Below are positions 10,241 to 40,230 of a DNA stretch of 64,000 bases, in pieces. Location of the stretch: positions 1,024,001 to 1,088,000 of the forward strand of contig OX638340.1 of assembly GCA_951812955.1 (NCBI GenBank). The letters run 5' to 3'. Within the stretch, counting starts at the first letter, position 1. Each line of letters begins with the position of its first letter. The notes under the pieces are model-generated. The model ran no database searches and was not told where the DNA came from. It saw only the letters and a list, made by a program, of their open reading frames with translations. Made by a program: the position numbers and the translations under genes. Origin of the DNA: an uncultured Gemmatimonadota bacterium. Lineage in GTDB: Bacteria; JAAXHH01.

Positions 10241-10577
10241 TCGTTCCCGGGCAATCTCGAACTAGTCTTCGATGCCGCATCACGTTCCCGGACAATCCAG
10301 CCTGCGCCCTTCACTCCGCGTTACCATCTCGAGAGGATAGCAGGAGCTATGATACCCAAGTAATATGGTCCGCGTCCAATACTTTCCATTTATTCTCTCC
10401 CAGCCGCGACGCCAGGACGCTGAATTGAGCCTGCAAACCCCTACTGTTATCGTTTGTAATCGCGCATTCGTTTGACCCTCAATCTAAATTCCAGTATTTT
10501 GGGAACGAGACACGATCCCGGCATCGGTCTGCCTGAAGAGGCCACGATTACCATAGCAGTTTTCGGAACTCTTCACA

Positions 10578-23671: not shown

Positions 23672-25714
23672 ATGAGCGTTCGCATCGCCATCGACACGGG
23701 CGGCACGTTTACAGACCTTGTATTGTCCGACCCCGACACGGGCCGGCTGGTCTTTCACAAGGTGCCGAGTACGCCCGCCGATCCGAGCCGGGCACTGGTG
23801 GAAGGTGTCAAAGGGCTCGTCGACCGGGCCGGCGTCGGCACTGCCGAAATCCTGTTTCTGATTCACGGTACCACGGTGGCCACCAATACGATCCTTCAGC
23901 GGAAGGGGGCCCATACCGCCTTCATCACCACCGAAGGGTTCCGGGACGTGCTCCACATCCAGCGGCAGGACCGCCCCCACCTGTACAACATGCGCATCCG
24001 CCGGACCCCGGCCCTCGTACCCCGCTCACTGCGATATGAGCTGCCCGAACGGACCCTGCACGACGGGTCGGAAGCGGCGCCGATAGACCAAGATCGACTT
24101 GGCAGCCTCGTGGCGGCACTCAGGGAGGAAGGCATCGAAGCCGTCGGCGTCGGGTTTCTCCACAGTCACATCGATCCCGGTCACGAACAATCGGCAGGCG
24201 AAGTGCTGCGGCGGGCACTGCCCGAAACCACAGTCTGCCTCTCCTCCGACATGAGTCGTGAAGAAGGCGAATACGAACGGTTCAGTACTTGCGTCATGAA
24301 CGCCTACGTGCAGCCCATCATGACGAACTACCTGAAGAAGGTGGACGATGCCCTTTCCAAGGCATCCATCGAGGCGCCGCTGTATGTCATGAAATCCAAT
24401 GGCGGGGTCACCTCGGCCCGGGACGCAGCGGATCACTGCGTGCATACGATTCTTTCAGGTCCGGCCGGGGGTGTCGTGGCCGGCGAGGAAATCGGAAGGC
24501 GGCTCGACCGGCCAAACGTCATCACCGCCGACATGGGGGGAACAAGTTTCGACGTGGCGATGATATATGAACGCAACATAGCTTTCGCGAAGAACGCGGA
24601 GATCGACGGCCTGGCCCTCAAAGCCCCCATGATGGACATCCATACGATTGGCGCAGGCGGTGGCAGCATCGCATGGATCGATTCGGGCGGCGCCCTGAGG
24701 GTGGGCCCGCAATCGGCAGGGGCGGAGCCGGGTCCCGCCTGCTACGGCGCCGGCGGTTCCGAACCCACCGTGACAGACGCGAACCTGGTGCTGGGCCGGC
24801 TCTCCACGGACAGTCTGCTGGGCGGCGCGCTGTCGCTGGATTCCGAAACCGCGCGTCGGGTGATCGACGAGAAAATCGCGGCCAGTCTGCAATGCACGGT
24901 GGAGGAGGCCGCCGAAGGGATCATCCGGGTGATCAACGCCTCCATGACGGCGGCCATCCGGAAGCTCACCGTGGAACGGGGGTACGATCCCCGCCTCTTT
25001 ACGCTGGTTCCCTTCGGCGGCGCAGGACCGCTCCATGGTACCGCTCTTGCCCGGGAACTGGGCATACGCGACGTGGTGGTACCGCTCGCGCCCGGGGTCG
25101 CTTCGGCCGAGGGCCTCGTTTTTTCGAACCTGCGTTCGGACCGGATCCAGACCCACGTAGAACTGCTGGATCGACTCGGGGCTTCGGAATTCGAGAAGAT
25201 GCTGGAAGAACTGACCGTACAGGCGGAAGGGGATCTGTCTACTTCGTCGGCTACAGGCCATCCGGTCATCAGCCGGCGCGCGGGCCTGCGATACGCAGGT
25301 CAGGGGTACGATATTCCCATCGACCTGCCCGAGGGCGCCGCCGACCTCGCCTTGCTCGAATCGGCCTTTCACCTCGAGCACGAGCGCCAGTACGGATTCG
25401 CGCGGCGTGATCAACGGGTTCAACTCGTCAACCTGTGGGTGTCTGCGGAACTGGTGATTTCGGGCAGCCGGCGTGATACCGCCGAACGAGCCGTGCCGGA
25501 TCGACCCAAACCACCTACCATGCGGCCCGTGTATCTTTCAGGCAACTGGATCGAAACAGCCGTGTTTGACCGTACCGCACTGCGCAGCGGCCAACAGATC
25601 GACGGACCGGCCATCATCGAACAGCTTGATTCCACGACACTGATCTGGCCCGGTGAGCACGCAGGAATCGATGCCTGGGATCAGATCGTCATTGCCGGAC
25701 TGGAAAACCCATGA
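23672..25714 (+). CDS. hyuA: hydantoinase/oxoprolinase A subunit family (HyuA-like) ATP-dependent hydrolase/carboxylase component
   Basis: 680 aa; MSVRIAIDTGGTFTDLVL N-terminus characteristic of hydantoinase A. Confidence 0.85.
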   Translation: MSVRIAIDTGGTFTDLVLSDPDTGRLVFHKVPSTPADPSRALVEGVKGLVDRAGVGTAEILFLIHGTTVATNTILQRKGAHTAFITTEGFRDVLHIQRQDRPHLYNMRIRRTPALVPRSLRYELPERTLHDGSEAAPIDQDRLGSLVAALREEGIEAVGVGFLHSHIDPGHEQSAGEVLRRALPETTVCLSSDMSREEGEYERFSTCVMNAYVQPIMTNYLKKVDDALSKASIEAPLYVMKSNGGVTSARDAADHCVHTILSGPAGGVVAGEEIGRRLDRPNVITADMGGTSFDVAMIYERNIAFAKNAEIDGLALKAPMMDIHTIGAGGGSIAWIDSGGALRVGPQSAGAEPGPACYGAGGSEPTVTDANLVLGRLSTDSLLGGALSLDSETARRVIDEKIAASLQCTVEEAAEGIIRVINASMTAAIRKLTVERGYDPRLFTLVPFGGAGPLHGTALARELGIRDVVVPLAPGVASAEGLVFSNLRSDRIQTHVELLDRLGASEFEKMLEELTVQAEGDLSTSSATGHPVISRRAGLRYAGQGYDIPIDLPEGAADLALLESAFHLEHERQYGFARRDQRVQLVNLWVSAELVISGSRRDTAERAVPDRPKPPTMRPVYLSGNWIETAVFDRTALRSGQQIDGPAIIEQLDSTTLIWPGEHAGIDAWDQIVIAGLENP

Positions 25715-27390
25715 AGACCGACCCCATCACCCTGGAACTGATGCGCAACCGGTGGACCGGCATCGCGGAGGAAATGTGCGCCGCGCTGATCCGCACCAGT
25801 TACTCCACCAATATCAAGGACCGGCGCGACTGTTCCGCGGCCATCGTGCAGCCCACGGGGGAGATCCTGGCCCAGGCCGAGTCGGGCGTCCCCTTACACC
25901 TGGGCGTGATGCCAGGCGTGGTGAAGTCCATCCTGGAAGTCTATCCCGTGTCGGCCATGAAGCCTGGAGACGTCTACATCACGAACCTGCCGTATCCCGA
26001 AGGACCGGGCCATCTGCCGGATGTTTCCCTGGTATCCGCCATATTCTATGAAAACCGCGCGGTCGCACTGGCGGCATCCACCGCCCATCACGTGGACATG
26101 GGCGGGTTCGCACCGGGCAGCATGCCCTTCGGCGTGACGGAAATCTACCAGGAGGGCCTGCAGATCCCCCCGCTCCCCATTTTCAAGGGCGGACAGCTTG
26201 ACGAAGATATCTACAAGTTGATCAACCAGAACGTGCGGACGCAGTACGAGGTGCGGGGCGACCTGATGGCCCAGTACGCCTGCGCACAGATCGGCCAGCA
26301 GAGGGTAAGCGAACTCATGTCCAGGGAGTCGCCCGAAGAAGTAATCCACTACATGGACGAGATCCAGGACTACGCGGAACGACGGATGCGGGCGGGGATA
26401 GGGACCCTGCCCGACGGCGAGTACACCTTCGAGGACTACCTGGACGACGACGGCGTCACCGATACGCCAGTGAAGATCGCGGTCGCCCTGACCGTCTCGG
26501 GCGACGAACTGCGCGCGGACTTTTCGGGTTGCAGCGACCAGGTTCTGGGTCCGCTGAACGCGCGGCTGCCGGCGGCCGCTTCCTGCATAAGCTACGTGTG
26601 CAAGGCGGTGATCGATCCGGACCTGCCCGCGTGTGCCGGGGCGTACCGGCCCCTGGACATCTTCGCCCCCGAGGGATCCATCCTGCAGGCTACCTATCCG
26701 GCGGCCATCGGGAACGCCAACATCCTGACGGACCAGCGGGTCGTGGACGTGCTGATGGGCGCGCTGTACCAGGCCGCGCCCGACCGCGTATGCGCGGCCT
26801 GCAGCGGGGAGATGAACCTGGTAAATATCGGCGGAATCGATCCTGCTTCCGGGGAGTACTACAACTACGTGGAAACCTACGCCGGTGGGCAGGGCGCCAT
26901 GTTCGACATCGACGGAGAGGACGGCGTGCACACGCACCTCACCAACACACGGAACGCGCCGGTCGAAATCATGGAACGTACCTACCCGCTGCGGGTCGAG
27001 CGGTACGGCCTGATCCCGGATACGGAGGGGCCCGGCCGCCAGCGCGGAGGCTGCGGGATGATGCGGGAGCTGAAGTGCCTGGGTGAACGCACCATCATCA
27101 CCCTGGGTTCAGACCGCCGGAAGTTCACGCCCTGGGGGCTCGAAGGCGGCGGCAATGCGTCGGGCGCCCACTGTTACGTGATCGACAACGAAGGGCAGGT
27201 CAGGGAGATCCCTACCAAGGCCCATACCGAGCTTTACAGGGACGACGTCCTGCGGATCGAAACCCCCGGCGGCGGTGGCTGGGGAGACCCGGCCGAACGG
27301 GTCCGGGAGAAAGTGGAAGAGGATGTGCGAAACGAGCTCATTGGCCCGGAACGGGCGAGCGGACACTACAGATGGGGGAAGGATCAGTAA
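25711..27390 (+). CDS. hyuB: hydantoinase B/oxoprolinase family (HyuB-like)
   Basis: 559 aa; ATGA overlap with hyuA; MKTDPITLELMRNRW...IRTSYSTNIKDRRDCS characteristic. Confidence 0.85.
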   Translation: MKTDPITLELMRNRWTGIAEEMCAALIRTSYSTNIKDRRDCSAAIVQPTGEILAQAESGVPLHLGVMPGVVKSILEVYPVSAMKPGDVYITNLPYPEGPGHLPDVSLVSAIFYENRAVALAASTAHHVDMGGFAPGSMPFGVTEIYQEGLQIPPLPIFKGGQLDEDIYKLINQNVRTQYEVRGDLMAQYACAQIGQQRVSELMSRESPEEVIHYMDEIQDYAERRMRAGIGTLPDGEYTFEDYLDDDGVTDTPVKIAVALTVSGDELRADFSGCSDQVLGPLNARLPAAASCISYVCKAVIDPDLPACAGAYRPLDIFAPEGSILQATYPAAIGNANILTDQRVVDVLMGALYQAAPDRVCAACSGEMNLVNIGGIDPASGEYYNYVETYAGGQGAMFDIDGEDGVHTHLTNTRNAPVEIMERTYPLRVERYGLIPDTEGPGRQRGGCGMMRELKCLGERTIITLGSDRRKFTPWGLEGGGNASGAHCYVIDNEGQVREIPTKAHTELYRDDVLRIETPGGGGWGDPAERVREKVEEDVRNELIGPERASGHYRWGKDQ

Positions 27391-27465: not shown

Positions 27466-28845
27466 ATGGTTAATGGAACCATACCAAAACGTATAGCCAT
27501 TATCGGCGGTGGGATATCCGGGCTGGGCGCAGCGTGGGCGTTGAATCAACATCCAGACCGGTTCGATTTCCGTATTTACGAAGCCCGGGAGCAGGTGGGC
27601 GGAAACGCAATCACCGCCGACATGCCGCAGGATGACGGCGGTTCCATTCCCTTCGACATTTCCGTCACCGCACTGATCCCATCGGTCTATCACCACATCC
27701 TGTTGTTGATGCGGAAGTTCGGCATCGAACTGCTCGATACCCGGTTCAACTACAGCGTGAAATACCATGGGCAGGTATACGCCCACGATTTCGACTCCGC
27801 CATCAGAAGGCAGCTGCAACCGGAGATTGTCCGGTTTCAACGGCTCCTGAAGCGTCTTCACCGGCTCGGCTGGCTGACCCATTCCCGGTCGAGGCTCGTC
27901 AACGCGCTCAATCCCTTAAATTACGTCAGCATGGGGACCGTGCTCAACCTGGGCGGTTTTTCAGGGGACTTCAGGTTCAAGATCCTGAAGCCCATGTTCG
28001 TCAATTTCCTGATGGCGACGAACGTGTTCGATATGCCCGCGTCGCTTTTTGCGCGGTACCTGGAGTTCTTCGATATCGAATCTGCGACGCCCATGCAGAC
28101 GTGGGACCAGGGCACGCGTCGTATCTACGAGCACCTTTCAGCCGGTTTCCGGGACAGGATATACCTCGGCCGGCCCGTACGAAAAGTGTACCGACGGCCG
28201 AACTGTGTCGTGATCGAGGATCCGGACGGAGTAGAGGAGACGTTCGACGAGGTGATCTTCGCCTGCAACGCGAACCAGACGCTGATGCTGCTCGACCGGC
28301 CCACGTTTCTGGAGCGGTACATTCTGTCGTCGATCCGTTATGAAAGCGAACTCCACAACCACACGGTCGTGCATTCGGACGCCTCCGTCCTGCCGGAGAA
28401 CGAAGTGAAACCGCTGGAGACGCGGAGCAATCATATTGAACAGTACGGGGCCAGGCCGGACAACTATGAAATAACCTACATCATGCACAACCAGCAGCCA
28501 TGGGCCAACCGGTCCGACAAACCCTGCCTGGTGACCTATAACCCGGTCACGCCCATCGACGAACGGAAGATCGTCAAGAAGTGGTGGTTCCAGCACATCG
28601 TGCATGATGTGCGCCATGTCGCCTGGCTCATCCATCTGTTCCGTTTCATCCAGGGCAGACGGCGGACCTGGCACTGCGGTGCCCATACCCTGATGAACAG
28701 CCAGGAAACCTGCTTTGTAACGGGACTCGCCGCGGCCTCGCAGATCGGCGCTGAATATCCCTTCAAAGACCCCCTGGCCAGGCGCATGTTCAATTATTAC
28801 GGAAGAATTCTGCACGGCTGGCGTTTCCGGAAGGCGAGAGGTTGA
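27466..28845 (+). CDS. NAD(P)/FAD-dependent oxidoreductase (amine-oxidase-like; resembles the FAD proteins encoded next to cyclopropane-fatty-acid synthase genes)
   Basis: 459 aa; dinucleotide-binding RIAIIGGGISGLGAAW...YEAREQVGGN. Confidence 0.65.
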   Translation: MVNGTIPKRIAIIGGGISGLGAAWALNQHPDRFDFRIYEAREQVGGNAITADMPQDDGGSIPFDISVTALIPSVYHHILLLMRKFGIELLDTRFNYSVKYHGQVYAHDFDSAIRRQLQPEIVRFQRLLKRLHRLGWLTHSRSRLVNALNPLNYVSMGTVLNLGGFSGDFRFKILKPMFVNFLMATNVFDMPASLFARYLEFFDIESATPMQTWDQGTRRIYEHLSAGFRDRIYLGRPVRKVYRRPNCVVIEDPDGVEETFDEVIFACNANQTLMLLDRPTFLERYILSSIRYESELHNHTVVHSDASVLPENEVKPLETRSNHIEQYGARPDNYEITYIMHNQQPWANRSDKPCLVTYNPVTPIDERKIVKKWWFQHIVHDVRHVAWLIHLFRFIQGRRRTWHCGAHTLMNSQETCFVTGLAAASQIGAEYPFKDPLARRMFNYYGRILHGWRFRKARG

Positions 28846-29090: not shown

Positions 29091-30167
29091 TTGCATACCT
29101 CCGAAACGATCGCAACCCCCATGGCCGACGCAGATACCGTACACCGTACCGGGCACGCTCCGGGTGGCCTACCCCCCTTCCCGGAAGGCTGGTACCTGGT
29201 AACCACGCGCGAAACCCTGTTGCGGGAAAAACTGATCGAGAAGATGTGGATGGGGGAGAACATCGTCGCATGGTGTGACGAGGAAGGCCGTATCTGCGTG
29301 GCCGACGCGGTTTGTCCGCACCTGGGTTCCGACCTGGGACCGCAGGTCGGCGGCAAGATTCACGGTGGCCGCCTGGTCTGTCCGTTCCACGGGTTCGAGT
29401 TCGATGCGACGGGTCAATGCGTCGCGACGCCCAACGCCCCGGCGCCGAAAGCCGCGAAACTGACCGTGTATGAAACCCGTGAGATCTCCGGCCTGGTCTT
29501 CGCGTGGTACGGAATCGACGGCCGTCCCGCGCACTGGCACCTGCCGGACGATCCTCCGACCGGTAACGAGTGGGGCGAACTGGGATTCAGAACCCTGCGT
29601 TTTCGCAGCCATCCACAGGAAACGGCGGAGAACTCCGTGGATATCGGACACCTGCGCTACGTACACGGCTATGACAATGTGGACCCGGTCGGCCCGGTGA
29701 CGGTGGACGGAGCCTACCTGAGGAGCTGTTTCAACTTCAAGCGCGTCCGCAGCATTATGGGCTTGAAGGACCTCACCTATGAAGTATCGGCCGTCGCCCA
29801 TATCCACGGTCTGGGATACTCCTATGTCGAAGTCCACGAAAAAACGATCGATATGCACTTGAGACTGTGGGTACTGCCCACGCCGATCGATGGCAGCCTG
29901 ATCGATCTCGTACTGGCGGGCCAATTGCAGGGAATCCGCAGACCCCGGCGTTTCATCTCGGGCCTGGGGTTCCTCCCCATGGCGTTGCGCAACCGCTTGA
30001 TGAAGCAAATCATGCTTTCACAGCAAAAACGGGACGTACTGCAGGACGTGGTGATCTGGGAACGAAAGCAGTTTCGCACGCCGCCCCGGCTGTGCAAGGC
30101 CGATGGGCCCATTGGCCTTTACCGGCGCTATTGCCTGCAGTTCTATCCTGAACAACCGAAAGCCTGA
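29091..30167 (+). CDS. Rieske [2Fe-2S] non-heme-iron oxygenase (KshA/Neverland/PaO-like)
   Basis: Rieske CPHLGSDL...CPFHGFEF and mononuclear iron motif ENSVDIGHLRYVH (Ex3Dx2Hx4H); alternative start MADAD at 29121. Confidence 0.8.
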   Translation: MHTSETIATPMADADTVHRTGHAPGGLPPFPEGWYLVTTRETLLREKLIEKMWMGENIVAWCDEEGRICVADAVCPHLGSDLGPQVGGKIHGGRLVCPFHGFEFDATGQCVATPNAPAPKAAKLTVYETREISGLVFAWYGIDGRPAHWHLPDDPPTGNEWGELGFRTLRFRSHPQETAENSVDIGHLRYVHGYDNVDPVGPVTVDGAYLRSCFNFKRVRSIMGLKDLTYEVSAVAHIHGLGYSYVEVHEKTIDMHLRLWVLPTPIDGSLIDLVLAGQLQGIRRPRRFISGLGFLPMALRNRLMKQIMLSQQKRDVLQDVVIWERKQFRTPPRLCKADGPIGLYRRYCLQFYPEQPKA

Positions 30168-30255: not shown

Positions 30256-31050
30256 CTATCCGCCGTCCTCCAGCTCAGCCAGAGTCTCCAGCACCCCCTG
30301 CTGGATGAACTCCTCGTAGGCGTCCCGTGTCGGTAGTTCGGCCGCCTTCGACAGCATTTTCGTGGCCCGCGCCCGGCCGTCCTCGCGATCAAGATATGGA
30401 AGCCTGAGCGCATATTCAAACAGCACGACCTTCGAGTCCGGAGCTAGCTCCAGAGCCCGCTCGTAATGGATGACGGCGTTTTTCCGATTCCCCTTGTACA
30501 AGAACCGTGCAACGCGCCCGGCACGTGCGATGTCGGCGTGCCAGCCCCCTAAGGCCATATGCGCCTCTGCGAAGTCGGGGGAGATGGTGAGCGCGGTCTC
30601 GAGCAAATCGCGTGCCCTGCCCGCCAGACCTCGGCGAAATGCAGTTAGTTTACCGATACTCTGTGCATATCGGCCAACAGCGTGCGCGGATTGGAAATAT
30701 GCTTCGGAATTGGTCGAATCGATGCGCACTGCTTCTTCCCCGTACTCTATCGCGCGTTCCAAAATACCGTTCCGGTCCTCCTCAGTCGCCACATGGTGGC
30801 CGTACACCGCGAGCGATTGCGCCGCAAGGGCGTAGCCTTCGGATGTACCGACGGCTGACGCGAGATCCGCCGCCTCGAGAAAACGGCCTTCCTCGAAATC
30901 GGTCCTTGCTTCATCGATCGACTGCGCGTTCGCGCCAGCCGGGTCGGCCAGGCTGGCCGCAATAATCACGAATCCCGCAACTGCCACGAAACGGACAACT
31001 GCCGCGAATCCCGCAACGACTGCGAAACGGTAAAACTGGGTAAGGGTCAT
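30256..31050 (-). CDS. membrane-anchored tetratricopeptide-like repeat protein
   Basis: 264 aa; N-terminal hydrophobic segment then Ala-rich helical repeats. Confidence 0.5.
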   Translation of the reverse strand: MTLTQFYRFAVVAGFAAVVRFVAVAGFVIIAASLADPAGANAQSIDEARTDFEEGRFLEAADLASAVGTSEGYALAAQSLAVYGHHVATEEDRNGILERAIEYGEEAVRIDSTNSEAYFQSAHAVGRYAQSIGKLTAFRRGLAGRARDLLETALTISPDFAEAHMALGGWHADIARAGRVARFLYKGNRKNAVIHYERALELAPDSKVVLFEYALRLPYLDREDGRARATKMLSKAAELPTRDAYEEFIQQGVLETLAELEDGG

Positions 31051-31208: not shown

Positions 31209-32252
31209 CTAAAGAGGTTTACGAGCCAGGAAACAGTACAGCGGCGTGAAGATACCCGACCTGCCGCCCTCGACATAAGCGTCAGCAGTTCGATCCAGGA
31301 GTCGGACCACTTCCGAATACCCCTTCGGAATCAGACTTAGCGCTTCGGCCATCTTCGATCCTGCGATCACGGCCTTGCGACCCCAAGGGAGCCTGTTCAG
31401 TGCGTTCCCCAAAGTCCCATGCCGACTCTCCATTGGCCGATACCAAGGCGTGGAGGGTTCATTCCGGACGTCTCGGTCCATCCCTTCGATGACGTGGAAT
31501 CCCGCCGCTTCAAGCCCGTGATTCACTTCCCTGAACGTCGCAATGTCGTTCAGCGCAATGCCGCGCATGAGGTCCTGCTCAATGGCCCGGTGCCGGTTGT
31601 CTTTCGGATCGAATTTCTCGGTCAGACACATTTCCTGACCCCAAAACAGGGCTCCTGGTTTGAGTACGCGGAAGATCTCCGCGAAAGCGCGTTCCTTGTC
31701 TGGCGCGTGGCACGTTGACTCGATGGCATAGGCTCGGTCAAACGTCTCGTCCTCAATGCCGCCCATATCCATGAAGCTACACGTCTCGTAATCGACCATG
31801 TGGCCGAGTCCCGCTTCAGCGTTCAACCGCTTTGCCTTATCCAATTGGAGTTCGTTGATGTTGATTCCGACAACCCGGACGCCGGCCTCCCGGACGACGC
31901 GACGCATCGGACCGCCGATTCCACAACCAACGTCGGCCACCGTCATACCCTGCTCCAACTCCAGCTTCGAGATCATCAACCGCTGATGCCGGATTATGGA
32001 TTCCTCCAGGCTTTCATCGGGCTTTAGTGGCGCGAAGTGGAGGGATTCGCTCCAACCCCACACCATTAACCCGCTGCAAAGATCATAGTACTCTTTCACT
32101 GTTTCTGTGTGGTCGTACTCATACGCGCCATCGGCCCCCGGGACCGCCCGGGCTGCCCGGGCGGTCCAGCCTTCAAGGCGCTGCGCGCGACTCTTGACGT
32201 CCGATCCCCGGCTCGCATCTTTCAGTTCTCTGGATAGTTTGCCCATCGCCAT
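31209..32252 (-). CDS. sterol 24-C-methyltransferase-like (SMT/ERG6 family) SAM-dependent methyltransferase
   Basis: 347 aa; SMT signature blocks MVWGWSESLHF (cf. YEYGWGSSFHF), VADVGCGIGGP, YAIESTCHAP (cf. YAIEATCHAP), C-terminal FTPLYCFLARKP (cf. FTPMMLFVARKP). Confidence 0.8.
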   Translation of the reverse strand: MAMGKLSRELKDASRGSDVKSRAQRLEGWTARAARAVPGADGAYEYDHTETVKEYYDLCSGLMVWGWSESLHFAPLKPDESLEESIIRHQRLMISKLELEQGMTVADVGCGIGGPMRRVVREAGVRVVGININELQLDKAKRLNAEAGLGHMVDYETCSFMDMGGIEDETFDRAYAIESTCHAPDKERAFAEIFRVLKPGALFWGQEMCLTEKFDPKDNRHRAIEQDLMRGIALNDIATFREVNHGLEAAGFHVIEGMDRDVRNEPSTPWYRPMESRHGTLGNALNRLPWGRKAVIAGSKMAEALSLIPKGYSEVVRLLDRTADAYVEGGRSGIFTPLYCFLARKPL

Positions 32253-32288: not shown

Positions 32289-34319
32289 TCAGACTTGCAG
32301 TTCGTGTCTTTGCTCGGAGATGACGAACTGCAGCTTCTTGGTCGGTTTCATAGACGGAAACGGATTGAACCGCAGCTTATAGTTTGCAGGCGACACATCG
32401 ATCTTGAAGTAGTGCGCCAGCATCAGCACGTTGACAGCCAATTGCAGTTCCATCCAACGGGTGCCGAGACACATGTGCGTGCCCAGCCCGTACGGAGCGT
32501 ACCCGGGGCTGCGATGCTCATTGCGCGACGGCAAGTAGCGGTCGATGTCGAAGGAGTGCGGGTCGGGGAAGATGTCACTCATGTAATGCGAGGCGGTCGG
32601 CGCGATGTGGATCCGTTCCCTCATGGGCAGTTCGTATCCCTCAAACACACACGTATTCATCACGTGTCGAACAGACATGGGAACGATCGGGTACATGCGC
32701 ATACACTCCATGAGGAAGCGGTGCGTGACGTCAATCGCGGATGGAGTGAAGGCCTCGATGTCCGGAACGCCGTTCCCGAATACGTCATCGGCTTCATTTC
32801 GGATTTTCTCGTAGAGTGCAGGCTGCGACGCCATGGCATAGACTACCAGACTGAACGTGTCACCAAGGTACACGCTGGCGATCAACGCCGCAGAAAAGGC
32901 AAACCGCAGGTTGGCCTCCGGGAGGAATTGCGGGTCGCTCGCGTGCAGGCTAAGGTAATCGTCCACCAGGTCCCGCGGTTTTCCGGCCCGTTGGGCGGGG
33001 GTGTGGCCCTCCTCGACTCTTTTCATCAGTGTATCAAGGGATTTCGCCCGGCGTTTCATGCCCGGGGTGTTCAGCGTGAACTCGGGCAGCATCCTGGCGA
33101 TATGCACGCTGAGCGCCCGTTCCTTGTACTGCATCAGATCGTCCATCAGGTCCTGCGTGTCGATGCCGATAAACAGGGGCGAGAGTTGGGCGTTTATCAT
33201 CTGCCGGCACATGGACGTAGCAGAATAGGAATCGCCGACATTCAAGCTTGCCATGTATTTCCAGGCATGATGGTAGAGCTTGTCCAGCTGCCCCGCAAGT
33301 CTCCCGCGTGAATACGCTGGAGACAAAGACTTGCGCAGGCGGAAATGGTCGGCGCCGTCCAGGGAAGGCAAGAGGCCGGAAGCGCCGTAGACTTTCTCGA
33401 AGTCTCTGAAATAGTCCTTGGCACTCAGGTACATGCGCCCGTGCTTATGCACCCAGCGGTTTGCCTCGGGTCCGACCAGGAAGACCATGGGCCGGGTGAA
33501 AGGAGGGCGGATCTCAAACACCGGACCGTAGTCCTGCGCAAGGTCCGCAAAGAGCGCGTGGAGGTTGCCGTCTCGAACATGCGGTTGCATCATCAGCTTG
33601 CGTAACGGTACCCTCGGAATCTTCTTTGTAAAACCGGGACGTCGAAGCGTCGGGCCGGCGAGTTTGTGGGAGACTGCTTCGGCGATGGACCGGCCGATCA
33701 CGTCCATCTTGCAGATCAACTCGATGCGTTGCTCCGTCTCGTCATCGAGTTGGAACATGAATCGAAACACATCGCACGTATTGACGAGGCAAATTACGAT
33801 AACGTCTCTCGGGTCGGGGATCTCGTTCATGAAGATCGCCCGGCTGATCCGCGTTCTGATGAACTGACTTGCAGTACTCGAATCGACATCGTTGTTCAAT
33901 TCCATCTTCCAGTCAGTACGGGCCAGCGTCCAGAACTCGCCATCGTGGTGTTCCAGGATCTTCATTTCTACCAGGCGATCCAGAACCGAATCTATAATGG
34001 TCTCCGCTCGGGGGGCCAGCCGTTCGATCCAGTACTGTGTATTGTGCTGATTTGGCTCATTTACGATTTCTTCCAGAATGAAATCGATGGTGGAATTGCC
34101 CGTTGGTGTCTGGTCGAGGACGAACAGAGACCCCGGGTCCGTGTCGATGCGAGATCTGATTGAAAGCTCCGCAAGTGCGGCACCGATTACGGCGCAGTTC
34201 AAATCCCAGCCAGGCACCTGGTGGAAGTAGCCAGTCTCCTCATTGAGGAGCATCAGGATGAGTTCCTGGGTCAAAGTAAGTGATTGGGGCTTCACGTCCT
34301 TTGCAGTATCAGCCATTAG
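32289..34319 (-). CDS. cytochrome P450 with N-terminal GPP34/GOLPH3-like domain
   Basis: Start MADTAKD (4-bp overlap with RND stop); N-terminal ~230 aa LTLTQELILMLLNEETG... resembles GPP34; C-terminal P450 with EXXR (ECMRMYP) and heme loop YGLGTHMCLGTRW. Confidence 0.75.
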   Translation of the reverse strand, partial: LMADTAKDVKPQSLTLTQELILMLLNEETGYFHQVPGWDLNCAVIGAALAELSIRSRIDTDPGSLFVLDQTPTGNSTIDFILEEIVNEPNQHNTQYWIERLAPRAETIIDSVLDRLVEMKILEHHDGEFWTLARTDWKMELNNDVDSSTASQFIRTRISRAIFMNEIPDPRDVIVICLVNTCDVFRFMFQLDDETEQRIELICKMDVIGRSIAEAVSHKLAGPTLRRPGFTKKIPRVPLRKLMMQPHVRDGNLHALFADLAQDYGPVFEIRPPFTRPMVFLVGPEANRWVHKHGRMYLSAKDYFRDFEKVYGASGLLPSLDGADHFRLRKSLSPAYSRGRLAGQLDKLYHHAWKYMASLNVGDSYSATSMCRQMINAQLSPLFIGIDTQDLMDDLMQYKERALSVHIARMLPEFTLNTPGMKRRAKSLDTLMKRVEEGHTPAQRAGKPRDLVDDYLSLHASDPQFLPEANLRFAFSAALIASVYLGDTFSLVVYAMASQPALYEKIRNEADDVFGNGVPDIEAFTPSAIDVTHRFLMECMRMYPIVPMSVRHVMNTCVFEGYELPMRERIHIAPTASHYMSDIFPDPHSFDIDRYLPSRNEHRSPGYAPYGLGTHMCLGTRWMELQLAVNVLMLAHYFKIDVSPANYKLRFNPFPSMKPTKKLQFVISEQRHELQV

Positions 34320-37300
34320 TGGCCTCCCTTCATCAGACGCAGATGAATGGTAGAAAGAGCGGGAACGACCATCATGAGTATGGCCGTGACGACGAGGATA
34401 CCGCAACCAAGCGATGCGGCAAAGGGAACCAGGAACTGAGCATGAATAGCGCGTTCCAGAATCAAGGGGGTGAAGCCGAGAAACGTAGTCAGAGAAGTAA
34501 GCATAATCGGACGAAAACGTCCCTTTGCGCCCTCTATGATCGCAGTTCGCGCCGGAGCGCCTTCCCTGAGTTTCTGATCGATGAAAACGATCATGACCAG
34601 TGAATCGTTCACAACCACGCCGCTCAGGCCGAATATACCCATGAAGGAGATTGCGCTCAGGGCTACTCCAAGGGCCCAGTGACCAAGGATCACTCCGATG
34701 AACCCGAACGGGATCACCGCCATGATGATGAACGGTTTGGTATAGGATCGTAAGGGGATGGCGAGCAGCACGAAGATCATGATCAGAGCGATCGCAAATC
34801 CGCGATACAGTGCATCCAGGGAATCGAGTTGTTGTTGTTGCTCACCTCCGAACGTGTAGGTCAGGTCCGGGTACACGGCGGTCAATTCCGCGAGGATTGA
34901 ATCCGCCAGGATGCTATTGGCCTGGTCACCGGAGATCACCGCGGCATCCACGTCCGCAGTGACCGTGACGACACGCTGACCATCCTTCCGCCGAATGGCC
35001 GGCGGCGACACGCCCGTGTTCAGCGCGGCCACACTGACGATCGGGACCTCGGCACCGGCCGGCGTACGGATCAGGTACCTTTCGATATCGGTGATGGAAC
35101 TTCGTTCATCGGCGGGCAGGCGCACGTAGACCCGAACCTCTTCACGGCCGCGCTGCACCCGGACGGCATCCGCACCGAAAAACGCGGCGCGCGTCTGTCC
35201 GGCCAACGCTTCCAGCGTGAGACCCAAAGTCCGCGCTTCCGGCCGGAGTTCAAGCTGTATTTCCGGGATACCCGGGGTGTGATCCGAACGGACATCGTAG
35301 ACGCCTGTCACTCCACGGAGACCATCGACCACCGAGTCCGCAATCCGGGCGAGTCGCACCGGATCCGGATGCGACAGCACGGCCTCGACCGGGTTGCCCA
35401 GGTCGAAGACCTCTCCGCTGAAGGTGACACCGCGCACGTAGGGCAGCACACCCACTTCCTCTCGCCATGCCTGCACAACCTCTCCGGTAGTGATCTGCCT
35501 TTGCTCCGCGCTCAGGAGTTTGAACTCGATGGTTGCAATGTTGGCCTGAGGATTAAGGGTGGGGGCTGGATTAAGCCCACCCTCGAGCCTCGAGCCCTGT
35601 CCGACGGTCACCATTACGCCGGTCAGCAGTGGTGGCGCATCCTCGGGGCGGCCGCGCGAAAGCCGATCGACGACCCGGTAACCTGCGGCCTCCAGTTCCT
35701 GTGCCACCTCGTATGTCCTTGGAGCGGTCGTCCCGTCGGGCATCTCCAGGATGACCGTCGCAAAATCCCCCTCCACGTCAGCAGCCAACGTGGTAGGTAC
35801 GATCCCCGCCGGTACCAGCGAGATACTAAGTACGAGTATTCCAACGGCCCCCCCCAGCGTGACCGCGGGCTGATCCGTCGCGAACCGTAACGCTCGGTCC
35901 AGGGGACCCTGCACGAACCGGTTCAGCGACTCGTTCACACGTCCCTGGATCCGCGCGAAGAACCGGTCGAAAGCACTTGTCGGCGTCCATTCCGGACCGT
36001 GCAAACGGGACAGGTGGTTGGGTAGTACCAGCAGTGATTCGATCAGGGAAACAAACAGTATGGCGATAAGGATGATCGGCAGTGCCCGCCATACGTCACC
36101 GACGCCTCCGGGTATGAACAGCAGCGGGACGAAAGCCACCACCGAAGTAAGGACCGCGAAGGTCAACGGCACTTTTATCCGTCGTACTCCGCGTATCGCA
36201 GCCACGACACCGGGCGTTCCCCGACTGCGTTCATATTGAATGTGCTCGGCTACGACGATGGCGTCATCGACGACAATCCCTATGGCGAGGACGAAAGAGA
36301 ACAGGCTGATGGTGTTAATAGCTACGTCGAGTACCATCATGACGGCCAATGTGCCTATACCCGAAACGGCGAGGCCGACGGCGACCCACAATGCAAGCCG
36401 GATTTCCAGAAACAGGCTGAGTGCGATCAACACCAGCAACAGACCCAGGATGCCATTCTTGACGAGAATATCGGCACGTTCCTCATAGGCTTGGGATTCG
36501 TCATTCCACATGGTGATGTGCACACCGTTCGGCAGAGCCGGGATCACCTCGTTTGCCATATGTTCCCGGACAGTCGTGGCGACGTCCATCACTTGTTCGC
36601 CGTTGGCTCGGTACACCTCGACGAATACAGCGGGATGGTTCTGATGCCGAACAATCAGGTCGGATTCCTGAAAACCATCGCGAACCCTGGCGATATCGCC
36701 AAGGCGCAAGGCAGTGCCGTCACTTCTGCTAAGCAGGATGATCTCTTCGAAATCCTGCTGGTCGTAGTTCTGGCCGAGGGTACGAACCCGCACCTGGGAT
36801 TCCCGGGTATCGATACTGCCGGCAGAAAGGTTCAGGGAACTGCGACGAATGGTATTGGCGACATCGGCGAGTGTCAGTCCAAGGGCTCTCAGCCGATGAA
36901 GCGGCACCTCGATGGAGATCTCGTATTTCCGAACACCACTGACCTCGACCTGGGACACGGACGGAAGCGCCGTGAGTCCATCCTCGATCTGATATGCCGT
37001 TTCCTTCAGCGAGCGTTCGGACACGTCGCCGTAGACGATGAACCGTATCATGCTCATACGGTTGTCCATCTCACGGAAACTGGGACGATCGGCACCGGCC
37101 GGGAAAGACTGGATGCGATTGACCGCGGACTCGATATCGTTGAGCGCCTGGACCATGTCCGTACCGAAATCCATTTGAATCCGCACGGATGCTATACCCG
37201 GGGCCGCTACAGACTTGACCGCCTTCACGTCATCCAACCCGCTGACCTGGTCCTCGATCTTGACGACGATCGACTCCTCGACCTCCTCCGGCGTGGCGCC

Positions 37301-37489
37301 GGGATAGGCCATCGACACTTCGATATGGTAGAAGGGAGTAGTGGGCCACGCTTCCCGATCGATGCCGGACAGCGAAATCAGCCCTGCGGCGACGATGGCC
37401 ATCATCAACAGATTGGCGGCCACGCTGTTGCCCGTCATGTAAGCGATCGGACCGGAAGGTTCGTTATGATTTCCGTTGTCCATACTCAT
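34316..37489 (-). CDS. RND-family efflux transporter permease (AcrB/HpnN-like, HAE)
   Basis: 1057 aa; 12-TM RND topology with two large periplasmic loops; ATGA overlap with upstream MFP gene. Confidence 0.85.
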   Translation of the reverse strand: MSMDNGNHNEPSGPIAYMTGNSVAANLLMMAIVAAGLISLSGIDREAWPTTPFYHIEVSMAYPGATPEEVEESIVVKIEDQVSGLDDVKAVKSVAAPGIASVRIQMDFGTDMVQALNDIESAVNRIQSFPAGADRPSFREMDNRMSMIRFIVYGDVSERSLKETAYQIEDGLTALPSVSQVEVSGVRKYEISIEVPLHRLRALGLTLADVANTIRRSSLNLSAGSIDTRESQVRVRTLGQNYDQQDFEEIILLSRSDGTALRLGDIARVRDGFQESDLIVRHQNHPAVFVEVYRANGEQVMDVATTVREHMANEVIPALPNGVHITMWNDESQAYEERADILVKNGILGLLLVLIALSLFLEIRLALWVAVGLAVSGIGTLAVMMVLDVAINTISLFSFVLAIGIVVDDAIVVAEHIQYERSRGTPGVVAAIRGVRRIKVPLTFAVLTSVVAFVPLLFIPGGVGDVWRALPIILIAILFVSLIESLLVLPNHLSRLHGPEWTPTSAFDRFFARIQGRVNESLNRFVQGPLDRALRFATDQPAVTLGGAVGILVLSISLVPAGIVPTTLAADVEGDFATVILEMPDGTTAPRTYEVAQELEAAGYRVVDRLSRGRPEDAPPLLTGVMVTVGQGSRLEGGLNPAPTLNPQANIATIEFKLLSAEQRQITTGEVVQAWREEVGVLPYVRGVTFSGEVFDLGNPVEAVLSHPDPVRLARIADSVVDGLRGVTGVYDVRSDHTPGIPEIQLELRPEARTLGLTLEALAGQTRAAFFGADAVRVQRGREEVRVYVRLPADERSSITDIERYLIRTPAGAEVPIVSVAALNTGVSPPAIRRKDGQRVVTVTADVDAAVISGDQANSILADSILAELTAVYPDLTYTFGGEQQQQLDSLDALYRGFAIALIMIFVLLAIPLRSYTKPFIIMAVIPFGFIGVILGHWALGVALSAISFMGIFGLSGVVVNDSLVMIVFIDQKLREGAPARTAIIEGAKGRFRPIMLTSLTTFLGFTPLILERAIHAQFLVPFAASLGCGILVVTAILMMVVPALSTIHLRLMKGGH

Positions 37490-38703
37490 GGGGTCTGGCC
37501 GACTTCCGTCTGGACGCGCATGCCTTCGGTGGTGAACCGGATCCCGCCGGTGACAACGGCCTGACCGCTTTCGAGGTCACCCGTCACATAGGCTACGTCG
37601 CCGGTTCGTTGCAGTACCTGTACCGGAACGATATGCACCACGCCGCCGTCCCGCACGATCCAGACCTCGTTGCCGGACTGCAGCGCCGCTCGCGGAACCA
37701 GGAAGTAATCATCCCGTTCAAGGCCGTCTATTTTCACTTCGACGTATTTGCCTACCAGCAGGGGAGGACTACTGCCGCCGATAGGAATCGTGCCGTCCGT
37801 GGGGCGTCCCGCTCGAAACGGATCCGGTACGCGCACAATGATGTCGATGGTACGCGTTTGCCGGTCAAGGGACGTCTCGCCGCGGTCCACATAACCTCTC
37901 CAGGCATAGGATCCTTCACCGAATCGGGCGACGACCTGCGCAGCGACTCTCCGGTTCCCGTCACCCGCCGAAAGCGACCACAACCCCGGAATCAGCGCTG
38001 CATCGGAATCGGACAGAGGCACCACGATTTCCACCGCATCTGAGGCGAAAACCCTCGCGACGGATTGACCGGCGGCGACGATCCGCCCCACGTCCACGGT
38101 TTCTTCCTGCACGTATCCGTCGAATGGCGCCGTAACTTCGGTTCTCCCCAGGGCGAGATTGGCGTCGGCAAGCCTGGCTTCGTCGCGATCCAGTGCGGCC
38201 TGGGCCGCTTTCAGTTGCGGTTCTCTAAGGGCAAGCGGGTTCGCGCCGTTTGGCGATGATACGTCCTCCTGACGGGAGGAATAAAGCGCGTGCTGCGCGC
38301 GGGCAATCGAAGCCCGTTCCTGCTCTTTGAGGAACGCCACCCGGCTGGCGGCGACGTTGGCCTCCGCTTCACGCACCCGGTGCCGGTAATCGATGTCTTC
38401 CAGCCGGAATAGCGTTTGGCCTGCGGTTATCCGTCCACCGCTCTGGAATCCCTGTTCAACCCAGACGACTTTGCCGCCGACCTGAGGAACGATATCTACT
38501 TCCGCGTCTGGCCGGACGGTACCGGATCCAAATACCGGTACGGGGCCAGACCCGGTGGCGACCGGGCCGGTCTGCACGAACGGAGTCTGGGGAGGCTGTT
38601 CCGTACGTGTCGGTTCGGGGGCCAGTGAAATCAACAGGGCGGCCAATGCCACGGAGACTCCGAGAACGCCTACTGTGACTAGAAGACTGGTAAGACGGGA
38701 CAT
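37486..38703 (-). CDS. RND efflux periplasmic adaptor (membrane fusion protein)
   Basis: 405 aa; N-terminal TM anchor, coiled-coil/lipoyl/beta-barrel MFP pattern. Confidence 0.8.
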   Translation of the reverse strand: MSRLTSLLVTVGVLGVSVALAALLISLAPEPTRTEQPPQTPFVQTGPVATGSGPVPVFGSGTVRPDAEVDIVPQVGGKVVWVEQGFQSGGRITAGQTLFRLEDIDYRHRVREAEANVAASRVAFLKEQERASIARAQHALYSSRQEDVSSPNGANPLALREPQLKAAQAALDRDEARLADANLALGRTEVTAPFDGYVQEETVDVGRIVAAGQSVARVFASDAVEIVVPLSDSDAALIPGLWSLSAGDGNRRVAAQVVARFGEGSYAWRGYVDRGETSLDRQTRTIDIIVRVPDPFRAGRPTDGTIPIGGSSPPLLVGKYVEVKIDGLERDDYFLVPRAALQSGNEVWIVRDGGVVHIVPVQVLQRTGDVAYVTGDLESGQAVVTGGIRFTTEGMRVQTEVGQTP

Positions 38704-38709
38704 GCGAAT

Positions 38710-40230
38710 TCACTCCGTTGGAAGGCGAGAGGAAGAGCGCCGACCTTGCTGATGCTGAAGGAGGCCCTCCCGGTCGGCTGCGGTCCAGGTACCGCCCAGC
38801 GCGCGATGGAGTGCCAGACGTGCGTAGCCCAGATCGCGCAATGCTGCCGAGTGTATCGATTGCGTGGCCAACCGGGACTGTTCAGCTGCCAGGAACGCTT
38901 CGTATTCCCCCACACCATACAGGTATTTTCGCTCCAGTAACGCGGATTGAGCCCGAGTTTCTTCGGTGAGGGAAACCAGCAGCGCGTGGCGCCTGCGGCT
39001 GGCTTCCAATGCCGTCAGGGCAATTTCAACCTCGTTAACCGCGGTTACCACGGCACGGCCGTATGCGGCCGCGGCCTCGTTCAACCTGGCCTCTGCCAGC
39101 GCGATGTTGCTTCGAATCCGGGAGCCCTGGAAAACGGGACCGAGCAGATTCGCAGTGAGGTTTCGGAACCATTGATCCGGATCGAACCATTCGCTTGAAT
39201 CCGTGCTCTGAAGTCCGATCGCGCCCTGCAGAGACAGCCTCGGAAGCAGGTCCGCCCGTCGCGCGCCCACCGAGAACCGTGCCGCCTCCACGCGCTGCAT
39301 GGCCGCAAGGACGTCGGGACGTTGGACCATGAGATCGGCAGGAATGCCGGCGGGAACGGGATCGAGTACGGGAGATGGAGCGGGCGCATCGGAGAGCAAG
39401 TGCGCCAGGTCGGCCCGGAAGCCACCCATGAGTATCCACAGCCGACCCTCGGCGTCCGCCCGCAGGGCTTCGATCCGCGGCAATTCCGCCTGGGCCTCAC
39501 GCAGACTTCGACGGGCGGCGTGCAGGCCGACCAGGTCGGCTAACCCGCTTTCATACCGGGACCCGGCCAGTGATTCCTGTTGTTCCAGGATCGCCACGAT
39601 TTCAAAGGCGAACCGCTGCTGCTGGCGCAGATTCACGATTTCCAGGTAGGTCCGTACGGTCTCCGCCAGCACGCCCAGGTTTGCACTCAGATAGTCCGCC
39701 TCCGTAGCCACCAACTCGGCAGCCGCGGCGCGCGTGTCGTTGCGGTTGCGGCCCCAGAAATCCAGCTCGTAGGCGAATTCAACGCTCAGGGCATAGGTCG
39801 TCAGTCCGAGCCTGTCCGGGATATCCACTCCGGCCGCGCCGAGTACGTCAGGATCCAGACCGACCTCTTCCAGTTGCGCTCCTATGCCGGCATTCGTCGG
39901 ACCGTCGGATTCGCTCACGTTCACCGTCGGCCGCAGCAACGGAAACACCGCCGACCCGGCTATGCCTTTCCGCATCCTGGCCTGATGAACTCTGGCGACC
40001 GCTCCGGCCAGGTCGAAATTAGAAGAAAGCACTTCTTCGATTACCCGGTCGAGGACCGGATCTTCGAATGACTTCCACCACTCCAGGGGTCGGTATACGC
40101 CGGAATCCTCGCTGGCAGTAAATGCGCCGGGTGTTTCCGGCACCGATTCGAGCACCGGTAGATTCCGGTTCGGAGCAAGGGAACATGCCGAGAGGAAAAG
40201 GAAAGCAAACAACGGTATTAATCGTCCCAT
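38710..40230 (-). CDS. outer-membrane efflux protein (TolC/NodT-family lipoprotein)
   Basis: 506 aa; lipobox LFLSACS; duplicated OEP repeats. Confidence 0.8.
   Translation of the reverse strand: MGRLIPLFAFLFLSACSLAPNRNLPVLESVPETPGAFTASEDSGVYRPLEWWKSFEDPVLDRVIEEVLSSNFDLAGAVARVHQARMRKGIAGSAVFPLLRPTVNVSESDGPTNAGIGAQLEEVGLDPDVLGAAGVDIPDRLGLTTYALSVEFAYELDFWGRNRNDTRAAAAELVATEADYLSANLGVLAETVRTYLEIVNLRQQQRFAFEIVAILEQQESLAGSRYESGLADLVGLHAARRSLREAQAELPRIEALRADAEGRLWILMGGFRADLAHLLSDAPAPSPVLDPVPAGIPADLMVQRPDVLAAMQRVEAARFSVGARRADLLPRLSLQGAIGLQSTDSSEWFDPDQWFRNLTANLLGPVFQGSRIRSNIALAEARLNEAAAAYGRAVVTAVNEVEIALTALEASRRRHALLVSLTEETRAQSALLERKYLYGVGEYEAFLAAEQSRLATQSIHSAALRDLGYARLALHRALGGTWTAADREGLLQHQQGRRSSSRLPTE

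Follow-up and report, generated by a model that had tools for sequence, protein, structure and literature searches.

Many bacterial sterol methyltransferases (SMTs) methylate desmosterol and 24-methylenecholesterol, and some of them add three carbons (Brown et al. 2023, PMC10070321). In sponge symbionts, ERG24-CYP51-LSS clusters occur in 115 of 537 metagenome-assembled genomes (MAGs), including Gemmatimonadetes; these clusters were transferred across about 10 phyla, Gemmatimonadota among them, and ERG6 is enriched as well (Kelly et al. 2022, PMC9531527). A fusion of GPP34 with a cytochrome P450 (GPP34_L) is reported to be exclusive to sponge symbionts and has been proposed to be a secreted effector that binds phosphatidylinositol 4-phosphate (PI4P) and blocks phagosome maturation (Microbiome 2025, PMC11706023). 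Here, we describe an SMT homologue, named SMT-B, that is encoded next to such a GPP34-P450 gene in a 64,000-nucleotide stretch of contig OX638340.1 (referred to below as the window), which belongs to the assembly GCA_951812955.1 of an uncultured Gemmatimonadota bacterium. With moderate confidence, we read SMT-B as an active enzyme that C-methylates a sterol-type lipid, neither desmosterol nor 24-methylenecholesterol, and that works in an oxidative tailoring-and-export module.

The SMT-B open reading frame (ORF) starts with ATG, encodes 347 aa (its coordinates in Table 1 count in the stop codon), and shows the codon-position GC pattern of a coding gene. VWGWSESLHF occupies residues 64 to 73 of the translation, the S-adenosylmethionine (SAM) motif VADVGCGIGGP residues 105 to 115, YAIESTCHAP residues 175 to 184, and the C-terminal tail FTPLYCFLARKP residues 335 to 346. 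In Pfam, Sterol_MT_C (PF08498) matched residues 289 to 346 with 56.7 bits (cut-off 21.7, E 2.6e-15) and Methyltransf_11 matched residues 107 to 203 with 66.5 bits, with CMAS matching as well; a class I SAM methyltransferase domain followed by Sterol_MT_C satisfies the architecture of the SMT family. NCBIfam held no specific model for SMT-B, its generic methyltransferase models matching only far under their cut-offs, and a PDB search with SMT-B yielded no true SMT structure, the top matches being generic small-molecule methyltransferases. A sequence-only reading of this DNA had proposed an ERG6/SMT homologue in a bacterium, and this assignment is borne out by PF08498 and by about 35% identity to yeast ERG6 (E 2e-65; 39 to 43% for the canonical, A-type bacterial enzymes), values that were obtained with an approximate ERG6 sequence and serve only as a lead. 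It had taken the lack of a Sterol_MT_C domain as the sign of a generic methyltransferase, and because PF08498 lies well above its cut-off this sign is absent. The ratio of nonsynonymous to synonymous substitution (dN/dS) of SMT-B against close relatives is 0.17 to 0.28, indicating purifying selection on a constrained enzyme and not a decaying copy.

SMT-B is homologous over its full length to yeast ERG6 and to plant SMT1/SMT2 and has H90, D125, G129, P133, and E195 (yeast numbering) in common with them, residues that are essential in yeast ERG6 as cited in a preprint (Brown & Welander 2025). The SAM-binding and catalytic residues D107, G109, G111, G114, P115, E178, H72, G200, and W270 of SMT-B are the equivalents of D125-x-G-x-G-x-x-G-P133, E195, H90, G217, and W286 of ERG6. 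When 71 B-type sequences were aligned to ERG6, H90, D125, G127, G129, P133, E195, G217, and W286 were 100% conserved, and G333, G352, and P359 were likewise kept. Region I differs: Y81-E-Y-G-W-G-x-x-F-H-F of Erg6p corresponds to M63-V-W-G-W-S-E-S-L-H-F of SMT-B, in which M63, W65, S68, L71, and, further downstream, I232 stand at yeast positions 81, 83, 86, 89, and 249. Y81M and F89L are found in 71 of 71 B-type sequences, isoleucine at position 249 in 70, and Y83W in 60, Y83 being replaced by either W or F in the clade, whereas Y/F81, F89, and G/D/N at 249 are retained in all nine A-types. All of 59 further metagenome copies, some as little as 57% identical, carried the signature M81/L89/I249 too, which brings the total to about 130 sequences. 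In the rest of the SMT family (about 100 family-wide representatives), Y81 and F89 are near-universal; the B signature is limited to representatives at least 49% identical to the window SMT-B, plus one transitional sequence. SMT-B is 44% identical to the canonical A-type enzyme of a Nitrospira bin (L053:8112-9143), with which it shares family, domains, habitat, catalytic and SAM residues, and sometimes a gene cluster; the A-type, unlike the assayed B-types, acts on desmosterol. The comparison points to a paralogue clade distinct from the canonical ERG6-type enzymes, in which specifically the substrate pocket appears to be rebuilt. All four strings that the sequence-only reading had quoted as diagnostic SMT blocks are present in the translation, but Region I departs from the canonical aromatic block, with M63 and L71 replacing Y81 and F89. 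The M81/L89/I249 signature also provides a means to sort metagenomic "ERG6" matches.

Two observations concern the edges of this clade. The transitional sequence (P0304, 341 aa, 42% identical to the window SMT-B) carries T81/L89/I249 and stands between canonical and B-type enzymes. In three divergent B-types (L134, L137, and L139, with the SMT at about 10001-11029 and 57 to 58% identity), glutamine replaces His90; they nonetheless have M81/L89/I249 and a neighboring GPP34-P450 gene.

Members of clade B have already been assayed. According to Brown & Welander (2025), all functional SMTs keep G84-W-G-x-x-F89-H-F, residues 249 and 81 line the docked side-chain site, and glycine at position 249, which SMT-B lacks, is necessary for propylation in 24-isopropyl-forming SMTs. 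Their Supplementary Figure 1 lists 2682229270 and the Aplysina aerophoba entry JGIcombinedJ30088_10000835 "2 of 2" under "No activity," that is, on desmosterol and 24-methylenecholesterol, and "Chromatiales 2 of 2" appears under the same heading. Gene 2682229270 (Nitrospira sp., coral reef, "2 of 2") corresponds to the B-type gene of our locus L032: the published contig has the size of L032 (70,077 bp), and the row of 2682229270 in the published alignment begins with "L," as does the TTG-initiated L032 ORF. The published gene order (SMT 2682229270, three genes, SMT 2682229274, sdmB, sdmA, ERG24, CYP51, and SMO-OSC; PMC10070321) fits L032 if 2682229270 is the B-type gene, and the published ERG6 identities of 35.63% and 38.81% (Nitrospira) and of 35.16% and 42.36% (A. 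aerophoba cluster) match our B and A values, for which the approximate ERG6 sequence was used. The inactive A. aerophoba clade member is JGIcombinedJ30088_100008359; contig JGIcombinedJ30088_10000835 itself was absent from the JGI metagenome matches. By this mapping, at least two members of clade B are listed as inactive on the two standard substrates. Brown & Welander themselves note that inactive SMTs may require other substrates, and we found no statement that the inactive SMTs form one clade with a common signature. A wrong substrate or missing partner enzymes would be a testable reason for the published inactivity.

These data bear on two alternatives. SMT-B could be a canonical sterol 24-C-methyltransferase, the negative assays reflecting expression or assay problems or a preference for early intermediates (lanosterol, cycloartenol, or zymosterol). 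Its family membership is clear, its catalytic and SAM residues are intact, B-type genes adjoin sterol pathways in some genomes, and the published assays offered only two substrates. Nevertheless, we consider it unlikely: at least two independent members of the clade showed no activity under conditions that suited most canonical SMTs of bacteria and sponges; the clade invariably lacks Y81 and F89, Region I aromatics that are held to stabilize the cation of C-24 methylation (PMC6997595); residue 249 lies within the modeled side-chain pocket of the preprint; and in Nitrospirota the B-type gene already stands beside a canonical, active SMT, so that a second identical activity would be redundant. 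The 24-C-methyltransferase identity given by the sequence-only reading is thus neither demonstrated nor likely for a member of a separate paralogue clade whose assayed enzymes scored "No activity" and which has lost Y81 and F89. Alternatively, the negative assays could mean a catalytically dead or purely regulatory lipid-binding homologue. This is very improbable, because the invariance of all SAM-binding and catalytic residues in about 130 sequences from many phyla and a dN/dS of about 0.2 would be unexpected without SAM binding or catalysis.

The genetic context of SMT-B is a gene cassette (Table 1). Five minus-strand genes lie head to tail, in the order outer-membrane efflux protein (OEP), membrane-fusion protein, resistance-nodulation-division (RND) transporter, GPP34-P450, and SMT-B, and a tetratricopeptide-repeat (TPR) gene follows on the same strand, while the flavoprotein and Rieske genes converge on this operon from the other side. 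The RND stop codon overlaps the GPP34-P450 start codon (TAATG) with a GGAGG Shine-Dalgarno sequence upstream, so that the two genes are translationally coupled, and only 36 nt separate the GPP34-P450 stop from the SMT-B start. The GPP34-P450 ORF as listed reaches a TTG at 34406, which is probably not the real start; we prefer the ATG at 34316, and the orthologue in locus L081 also has 675 aa. In a promoter and terminator scan, the number of sites did not exceed the chance expectation.

Table 1. Genes of the SMT-B cassette in the window and the basis of their assignment
Feature	Position	Strand	Evidence
OEP/TolC-like outer-membrane efflux protein, first gene of the minus-strand operon	38710..40230	minus	PF02321, E 3.3e-37
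Membrane-fusion (periplasmic adaptor) protein of the pump	37486..38703	minus	HlyD_3; 4-nt overlap with the RND gene
RND (AcrB-type) inner-membrane transporter	34316..37489	minus	PF00873, E 1.4e-159
GPP34-cytochrome P450 fusion ("GPP34_L"), 675 aa	32289..34316	minus	Pfam GPP34 1.9e-28, p450 6.4e-37
SMT-B, SMT-family SAM-dependent C-methyltransferase with a non-canonical pocket	31209..32252	minus	ORF, PF08498, residue analysis, dN/dS
TPR-repeat protein with hydrophobic N-terminus, probable envelope protein	30256..31050	minus	TPR families
KshA-like Rieske non-heme-iron oxygenase	29091..30167	plus	Rieske + KshA_C domains
LkcE-like FAD-dependent amine-oxidase-fold protein	27466..28845	plus	Amino_oxidase, NAD_binding_8

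In the GPP34-P450 protein, the GPP34 and p450 domains scored 100.3 and 127.8 bits in Pfam, and the heme-thiolate motif YGLGTHMCLG and the ExxR motif (ECMR) are visible in the translation; the GPP34 domain was too divergent to be aligned with Vps74/GOLPH3 at the PI4P-binding residues (E 0.26). In the Rieske protein (PF00355, 58.2 bits; PF19298 or KshA_C, 80.3 bits), CPH...CPFH supplies the ligands of the cluster and E-x3-D-x2-H-x4-H the motif for the mononuclear iron; its best solved relatives are the 3-ketosteroid 9-alpha-hydroxylases (KshA; E 1e-22 against PDB), which places it among the KshA-type Rieske oxygenases. The flavoprotein matched LkcE (6e-26) and 2b9w (2e-10) in PDB. The TPR protein matched only designed or consensus TPR proteins there and no sterol-transport protein; its L081 orthologue is 71% identical and annotated as PF21033 (RMD1-3-like).

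The GPP34-P450 gene has the architecture and habitat restriction of GPP34_L. Unlike in the published account, its translation is coupled to that of an RND pump, and an SMT homologue follows directly downstream; for this reason we favor a P450 that is targeted to membranes and tailors lipids, which would be a lipid-metabolic alternative to the phagosome effector. In the main text on GPP34_L, sterols, methyltransferases, efflux, and lipids go unmentioned, and flanks were analyzed there for the short GPP34 form only (PMC11706023); our literature search found no published link of GPP34 with sterols. As far as we searched, the neighborhood of an "inactive" SMT and a GPP34-P450 in one mobile cassette is unreported: bacterial SMTs are already known, but SMT-B as a distinct variant and its context with GPP34-P450 appear to be undescribed. 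Two separately published hallmarks of sponge symbiosis, ERG6 enrichment and the GPP34-P450 fusion, are thereby joined into one module.

When each GTDB species was scanned through a single representative genome, 525 of these genomes were found to carry close relatives of SMT-B; the best 80 (72 to 92% identity) were used for locus statistics. Within 10 kb of SMT-B, a GPP34-P450 gene is present in 74 of the 80 loci; a Rieske gene lies nearby in 66, the flavoprotein (75 to 96% identity) in 37, and the RND pump (70 to 95% identity) also in 37, and the TPR gene is conserved in 18. Gene order varies among lineages. In loci without an AcrB-type pump, MMPL/HAE3 transporters recur, including in the Chloroflexota and Nitrospirota cassettes, and these transporters show matches to sterol-sensing domains and sub-threshold matches to the HpnN and BstA models. 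A coupling of polycyclic-lipid genes to an RND-superfamily transporter is likewise known for the exporters HpnN (hopanoids) and BstA (sterols); the window pump differs from both in being a tripartite AcrB-type system, and the likeness of the MMPL/HAE3 transporters found elsewhere is sub-threshold. More divergent B subclades either have a divergent GPP34-P450 paralogue and an RND pump alongside SMT-B or are unlinked. This conserved context was overlooked by the sequence-only reading, which also stated that SMTs are rare in bacteria; the count of 525 species-representative genomes contradicts this for the sponge-symbiont habitat.

At L044:7985-8899 and in ten other loci, an inserted outer-membrane beta-barrel gene (PF13505) separates the flavoprotein gene from the Rieske gene; about half of these loci have Nitrospirales or Nitrospira labels and one is labeled Nitrospinota. 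This insertion hints at an envelope-directed function. A protein of 477 aa combining KshA_C and Sterol_MT_C (P0060) was rejected as a fusion and dropped as Rosetta-stone evidence: a truncated Rieske tail is read through into a complete SMT, probably owing to an error in gene calling or to a frameshift. Steroid catabolism, suggested by the KshA-like gene, was likewise discarded, as no beta-oxidation, Hsa, or KstD genes were found in the window or in recurrent flanks.

The cassette is spread widely among sponge and coral symbionts. A large protein collection contained more than 2,500 SMT-B relatives, of which the best 120 were inspected; they are 73 to 100% identical, and all have PF08498. Among 241 million metagenome records, 64 of 65 JGI matches came from Aplysina aerophoba, Petrosia ficiformis, or Sarcotragus foetidus projects, and one contig was unplaced. 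The best 80 loci are labeled Gemmatimonadota, Latescibacterota, Chloroflexota/Dehalococcoidia, Nitrospirota, Nitrospinota, Actinomycetota, Rhodothermales, Binatia, and Thermodesulfobacteriota, and many of their bin names are those of sponge and coral microbiome studies; a Gemmatimonadetes bin (APA_bin_41, L002) and L001 carry near-identical, window-like loci. An exhaustive search of 1.84 billion cluster representatives returned only 245 for the whole SMT family (E <= 1e-30), and clade B reduces to two or three full-length representatives, followed by a gap beyond which the canonical SMTs of bacteria and eukaryotes reach no more than 43% identity. The median identity of SMT-B between labeled phyla (72 to 83%, with a maximum of 94 to 98%) is about equal to that within phyla (76 to 89%), and clusters at 80% identity or more mix five labeled phyla. 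Between the window SMT-B, from a 3.8-Mb genome, and the copy in a 6.4-Mb chromosome labeled Latescibacterota (OZ247580.1, L003), dS is 0.23. Judged from these sequence comparisons, the cassette is specific to sponge and coral symbionts and horizontally spread between phyla, and SMT-B is the commonest SMT homologue of sponge microbiomes, with hundreds of species-level genomes and no fewer than nine labeled phyla. In contrast to ERG6 and SMT1/SMT2, with their Y81EYGWG86...F89 Region I, SMT-B is a bacterial, operon-borne, and horizontally mobile enzyme. The cassette is sponge-enriched, under purifying selection, and horizontally transferred like the clusters of Kelly et al.; its gene set is different, however, with none of their three core genes in the window and adjacency only in some genomes.

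In the Latescibacterota-labeled chromosome, the Rieske and flavoprotein genes are absent from the vicinity, and the locus looks like a recent transfer of a partial cassette. The fused SQMO-OSC of sponge symbionts (L053:4360-8022, L082:10001-13390, P0144-P0465), in which OSC stands for oxidosqualene cyclase, is 70 to 100% identical across bins labeled Nitrospira, Acidimicrobiia, Alpha- and Gammaproteobacteria, and Rhodospirillales and appears to have spread horizontally as the SMT-B cassette did.

In some genomes, the cassette adjoins a sterol pathway. One example, L053 from Nitrospira sp. bin75 of A. aerophoba, has one after another an sdmB-like gene, an sdmA-like Rieske gene, ERG24, a CYP51-like P450, a fused SQMO/OSC, an A-type SMT, a B-type SMT, and GPP34-P450, and several Nitrospirota loci have both an A-type and a B-type SMT gene. 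Four Nitrospirota loci (L035, L043, L045, and L053) have an OSC catalytic motif no more than 10 kb from SMT-B; on one 384-kb contig (L081/L082), the cassette is about 20 kb from an sdmA-ERG24-CYP51-SQMO/OSC cluster, and in seven cases SMT-B and OSC matches were on equal-sized contigs. A-type genes are linked to OSC, CYP51, and ERG24, whereas B-type genes are linked to GPP34-P450, Rieske, and RND genes. In the 64-kb window, tblastn searches with OSC, SQMO, ERG24, sdmA, sdmB, CYP51, and A-type SMT gave weak paralogue matches only, and Pfam scans of nearly all large ORFs showed no other isoprenoid genes, in agreement with the earlier remark that no oxidosqualene cyclase is in the window. That reading was right on the SMT family and on the missing cyclase; the canonical function that it gave is unlikely, and the rarity does not hold in the sponge-symbiont habitat.

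We propose that SMT-B acts on a sterol-type polycyclic lipid that differs from the standard substrates in its side-chain olefin, the state of its nucleus, or the carbon methylated. The membrane-targeted GPP34-P450, the KshA-like Rieske oxygenase, and the LkcE-like flavoenzyme would oxidize, desaturate, or isomerize this lipid, SMT-B would methylate it as one step of the operon-encoded module, and the RND transporter (elsewhere MMPL/HAE3) would carry the product to the envelope or out of the cell. A co-located de novo sterol pathway may feed the module in some genomes; in the window genome, the sterol could come from the host or the community, because no cyclase was found.

Several points weigh against this proposal. 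The window contains neither a cyclase nor any other sterol gene, and no OSC match belonging to the window lineage (genomes of 3,813,436, 3,917,282, and 3,912,450 bp) was present among the best 120 of two OSC-centered lists or in the large OSC clusters; this is suggestive of the absence of a cyclase from the lineage, and for these reasons the link to sterols is indirect for the window genome. Since the clusters of Kelly et al. include Gemmatimonadetes (PMC9531527), and the absence in the lineage is only suggestive, a self-made and a host-derived sterol are both possible. Divergent SMT-B subclades often have no cassette linkage, and clade B contains no member with a demonstrated product. "No activity" in Escherichia coli lysates could stem from poor expression or folding instead of substrate choice. 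The partner enzymes resemble characterized enzymes only distantly (E 1e-16 to 1e-26), and MAG taxon labels were assigned by the submitters, so that the transfer claim can be only as precise as these labels.

The missing sterol genes of the window, together with the lack of any for its lineage among the matches listed, also fit a non-sterol substrate, that is, another olefinic lipid (a squalene-like triterpene, hopanoid, carotenoid, polyprenyl, or fatty-acyl compound) that is tailored by the oxygenases and exported. The listed inactivity of assayed clade members on sterols points the same way, and of the solved relatives of the flavoprotein, LkcE acts on a polyketide and 2b9w on a fatty acid. 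Within the SMT family, the Botryococcus enzymes methylate squalene and botryococcene. Such a substrate nonetheless has only a small chance of being correct in our view, given that the cassette is repeatedly beside or near complete sterol pathways, that the Rieske partner is KshA-like, that the alternative transporters show sterol-sensing-domain, HpnN-like, and BstA-like similarity, and that the Sterol_MT_C domain is conserved.

The KshA-like partner raises the question of the steroid nucleus. STRM-1/4-SMT enzymes of nematodes, dinoflagellates, and haptophytes have a remodeled, less aromatic Region I, act on 3-oxo steroids, and show altered regiochemistry (PMC6997595, PMC9136925); although eukaryotic and compared here by description, they are a precedent for an SMT-family enzyme with a changed substrate that scores as inactive on ordinary sterols. 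By analogy, the flavoprotein or the Rieske protein could handle a 3-keto intermediate and SMT-B could methylate an enolizable ring carbon. The 4-SMTs belong to the SMT family; 3-ketosteroids are their only substrates, 3-beta-hydroxysterols are not converted, and the aromatic signature of Region I is gone. The conserved Rieske partner of SMT-B is closest to a 3-ketosteroid 9-alpha-hydroxylase. However, SMT-B still has W85 and H90 and is aromatic at position 83, so that Y81M and F89L amount to a partial aromatic loss. Nor is there a reason known to us for 4-methyl or 4-methylene sterols to be general to all host sponges of cassette-bearing bacteria, and we regard ring methylation as rather improbable.

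The substrate of SMT-B matters for the reading of sterane "sponge biomarkers." Steranes with alkylated side chains, such as 24-isopropylcholestane and 26-methylstigmastane, are taken as the oldest chemical traces of animals, and the debate now hinges on which organisms and enzymes make the precursor sterols. There is a slim prospect that clade B is one of the missing unconventional sterol alkylases of sponges, for example, a C-26 methyltransferase, or that it methylates a sterol modified by the P450 or the Rieske oxygenase. As a C-26 enzyme, it would act on delta-25 sterols of the (epi)codisterol type, reported products of the neighboring canonical SMT in Nitrospirota, and give side chains of the aplysterol or 26-methylstigmastane type. 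If this were true, the tailoring and export of host or self-made sterols would be the work of bacteria from many phyla and not of the sponge, and the GPP34-P450 published as a phagocytosis-evasion effector would be the membrane-anchored oxygenase of a lipid pathway. On the evidence above, and whatever its substrate, the SMT-B of sponge microbiomes is neither a redundant nor a dead copy but a strongly constrained enzyme carried in a mobile operon together with oxygenases and an exporter, and the cassette makes the open biomarker question directly testable.

Other features of the window lie outside the cassette. Immediately upstream of it, a hydantoinase/oxoprolinase A and B pair (23672-27390) is 82 to 97% identical in the closest relatives (L001, L006, L007, L029, L071, L076, and L079) and marks a vertically inherited flank of the window lineage. 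A CrtO/CrtI-family FAD protein of 665 aa (45131-47128), 13 kb from SMT-B, matched the NCBIfam beta-carotene ketolase model with 161 bits, far under the cut-off, and is possibly a desaturase of carotenoids or other isoprenoids. Three genes belong to the phytanoyl-CoA dioxygenase (PhyH) family (3570-4436, 4450-5283, and 62370-63218). Between 51147 and 57900, there are four consecutive plus-strand ORFs (702, 283, 900, and 333 aa) without a Pfam match, and GC falls to 0.45 at 54 to 56 kb against about 0.60 elsewhere in the window. The sole match of these four ORFs is a weak PADLOC DNA-methyltransferase match of the 702-aa product; the region is probably an acquired island and possibly a defense or restriction-modification-like system.

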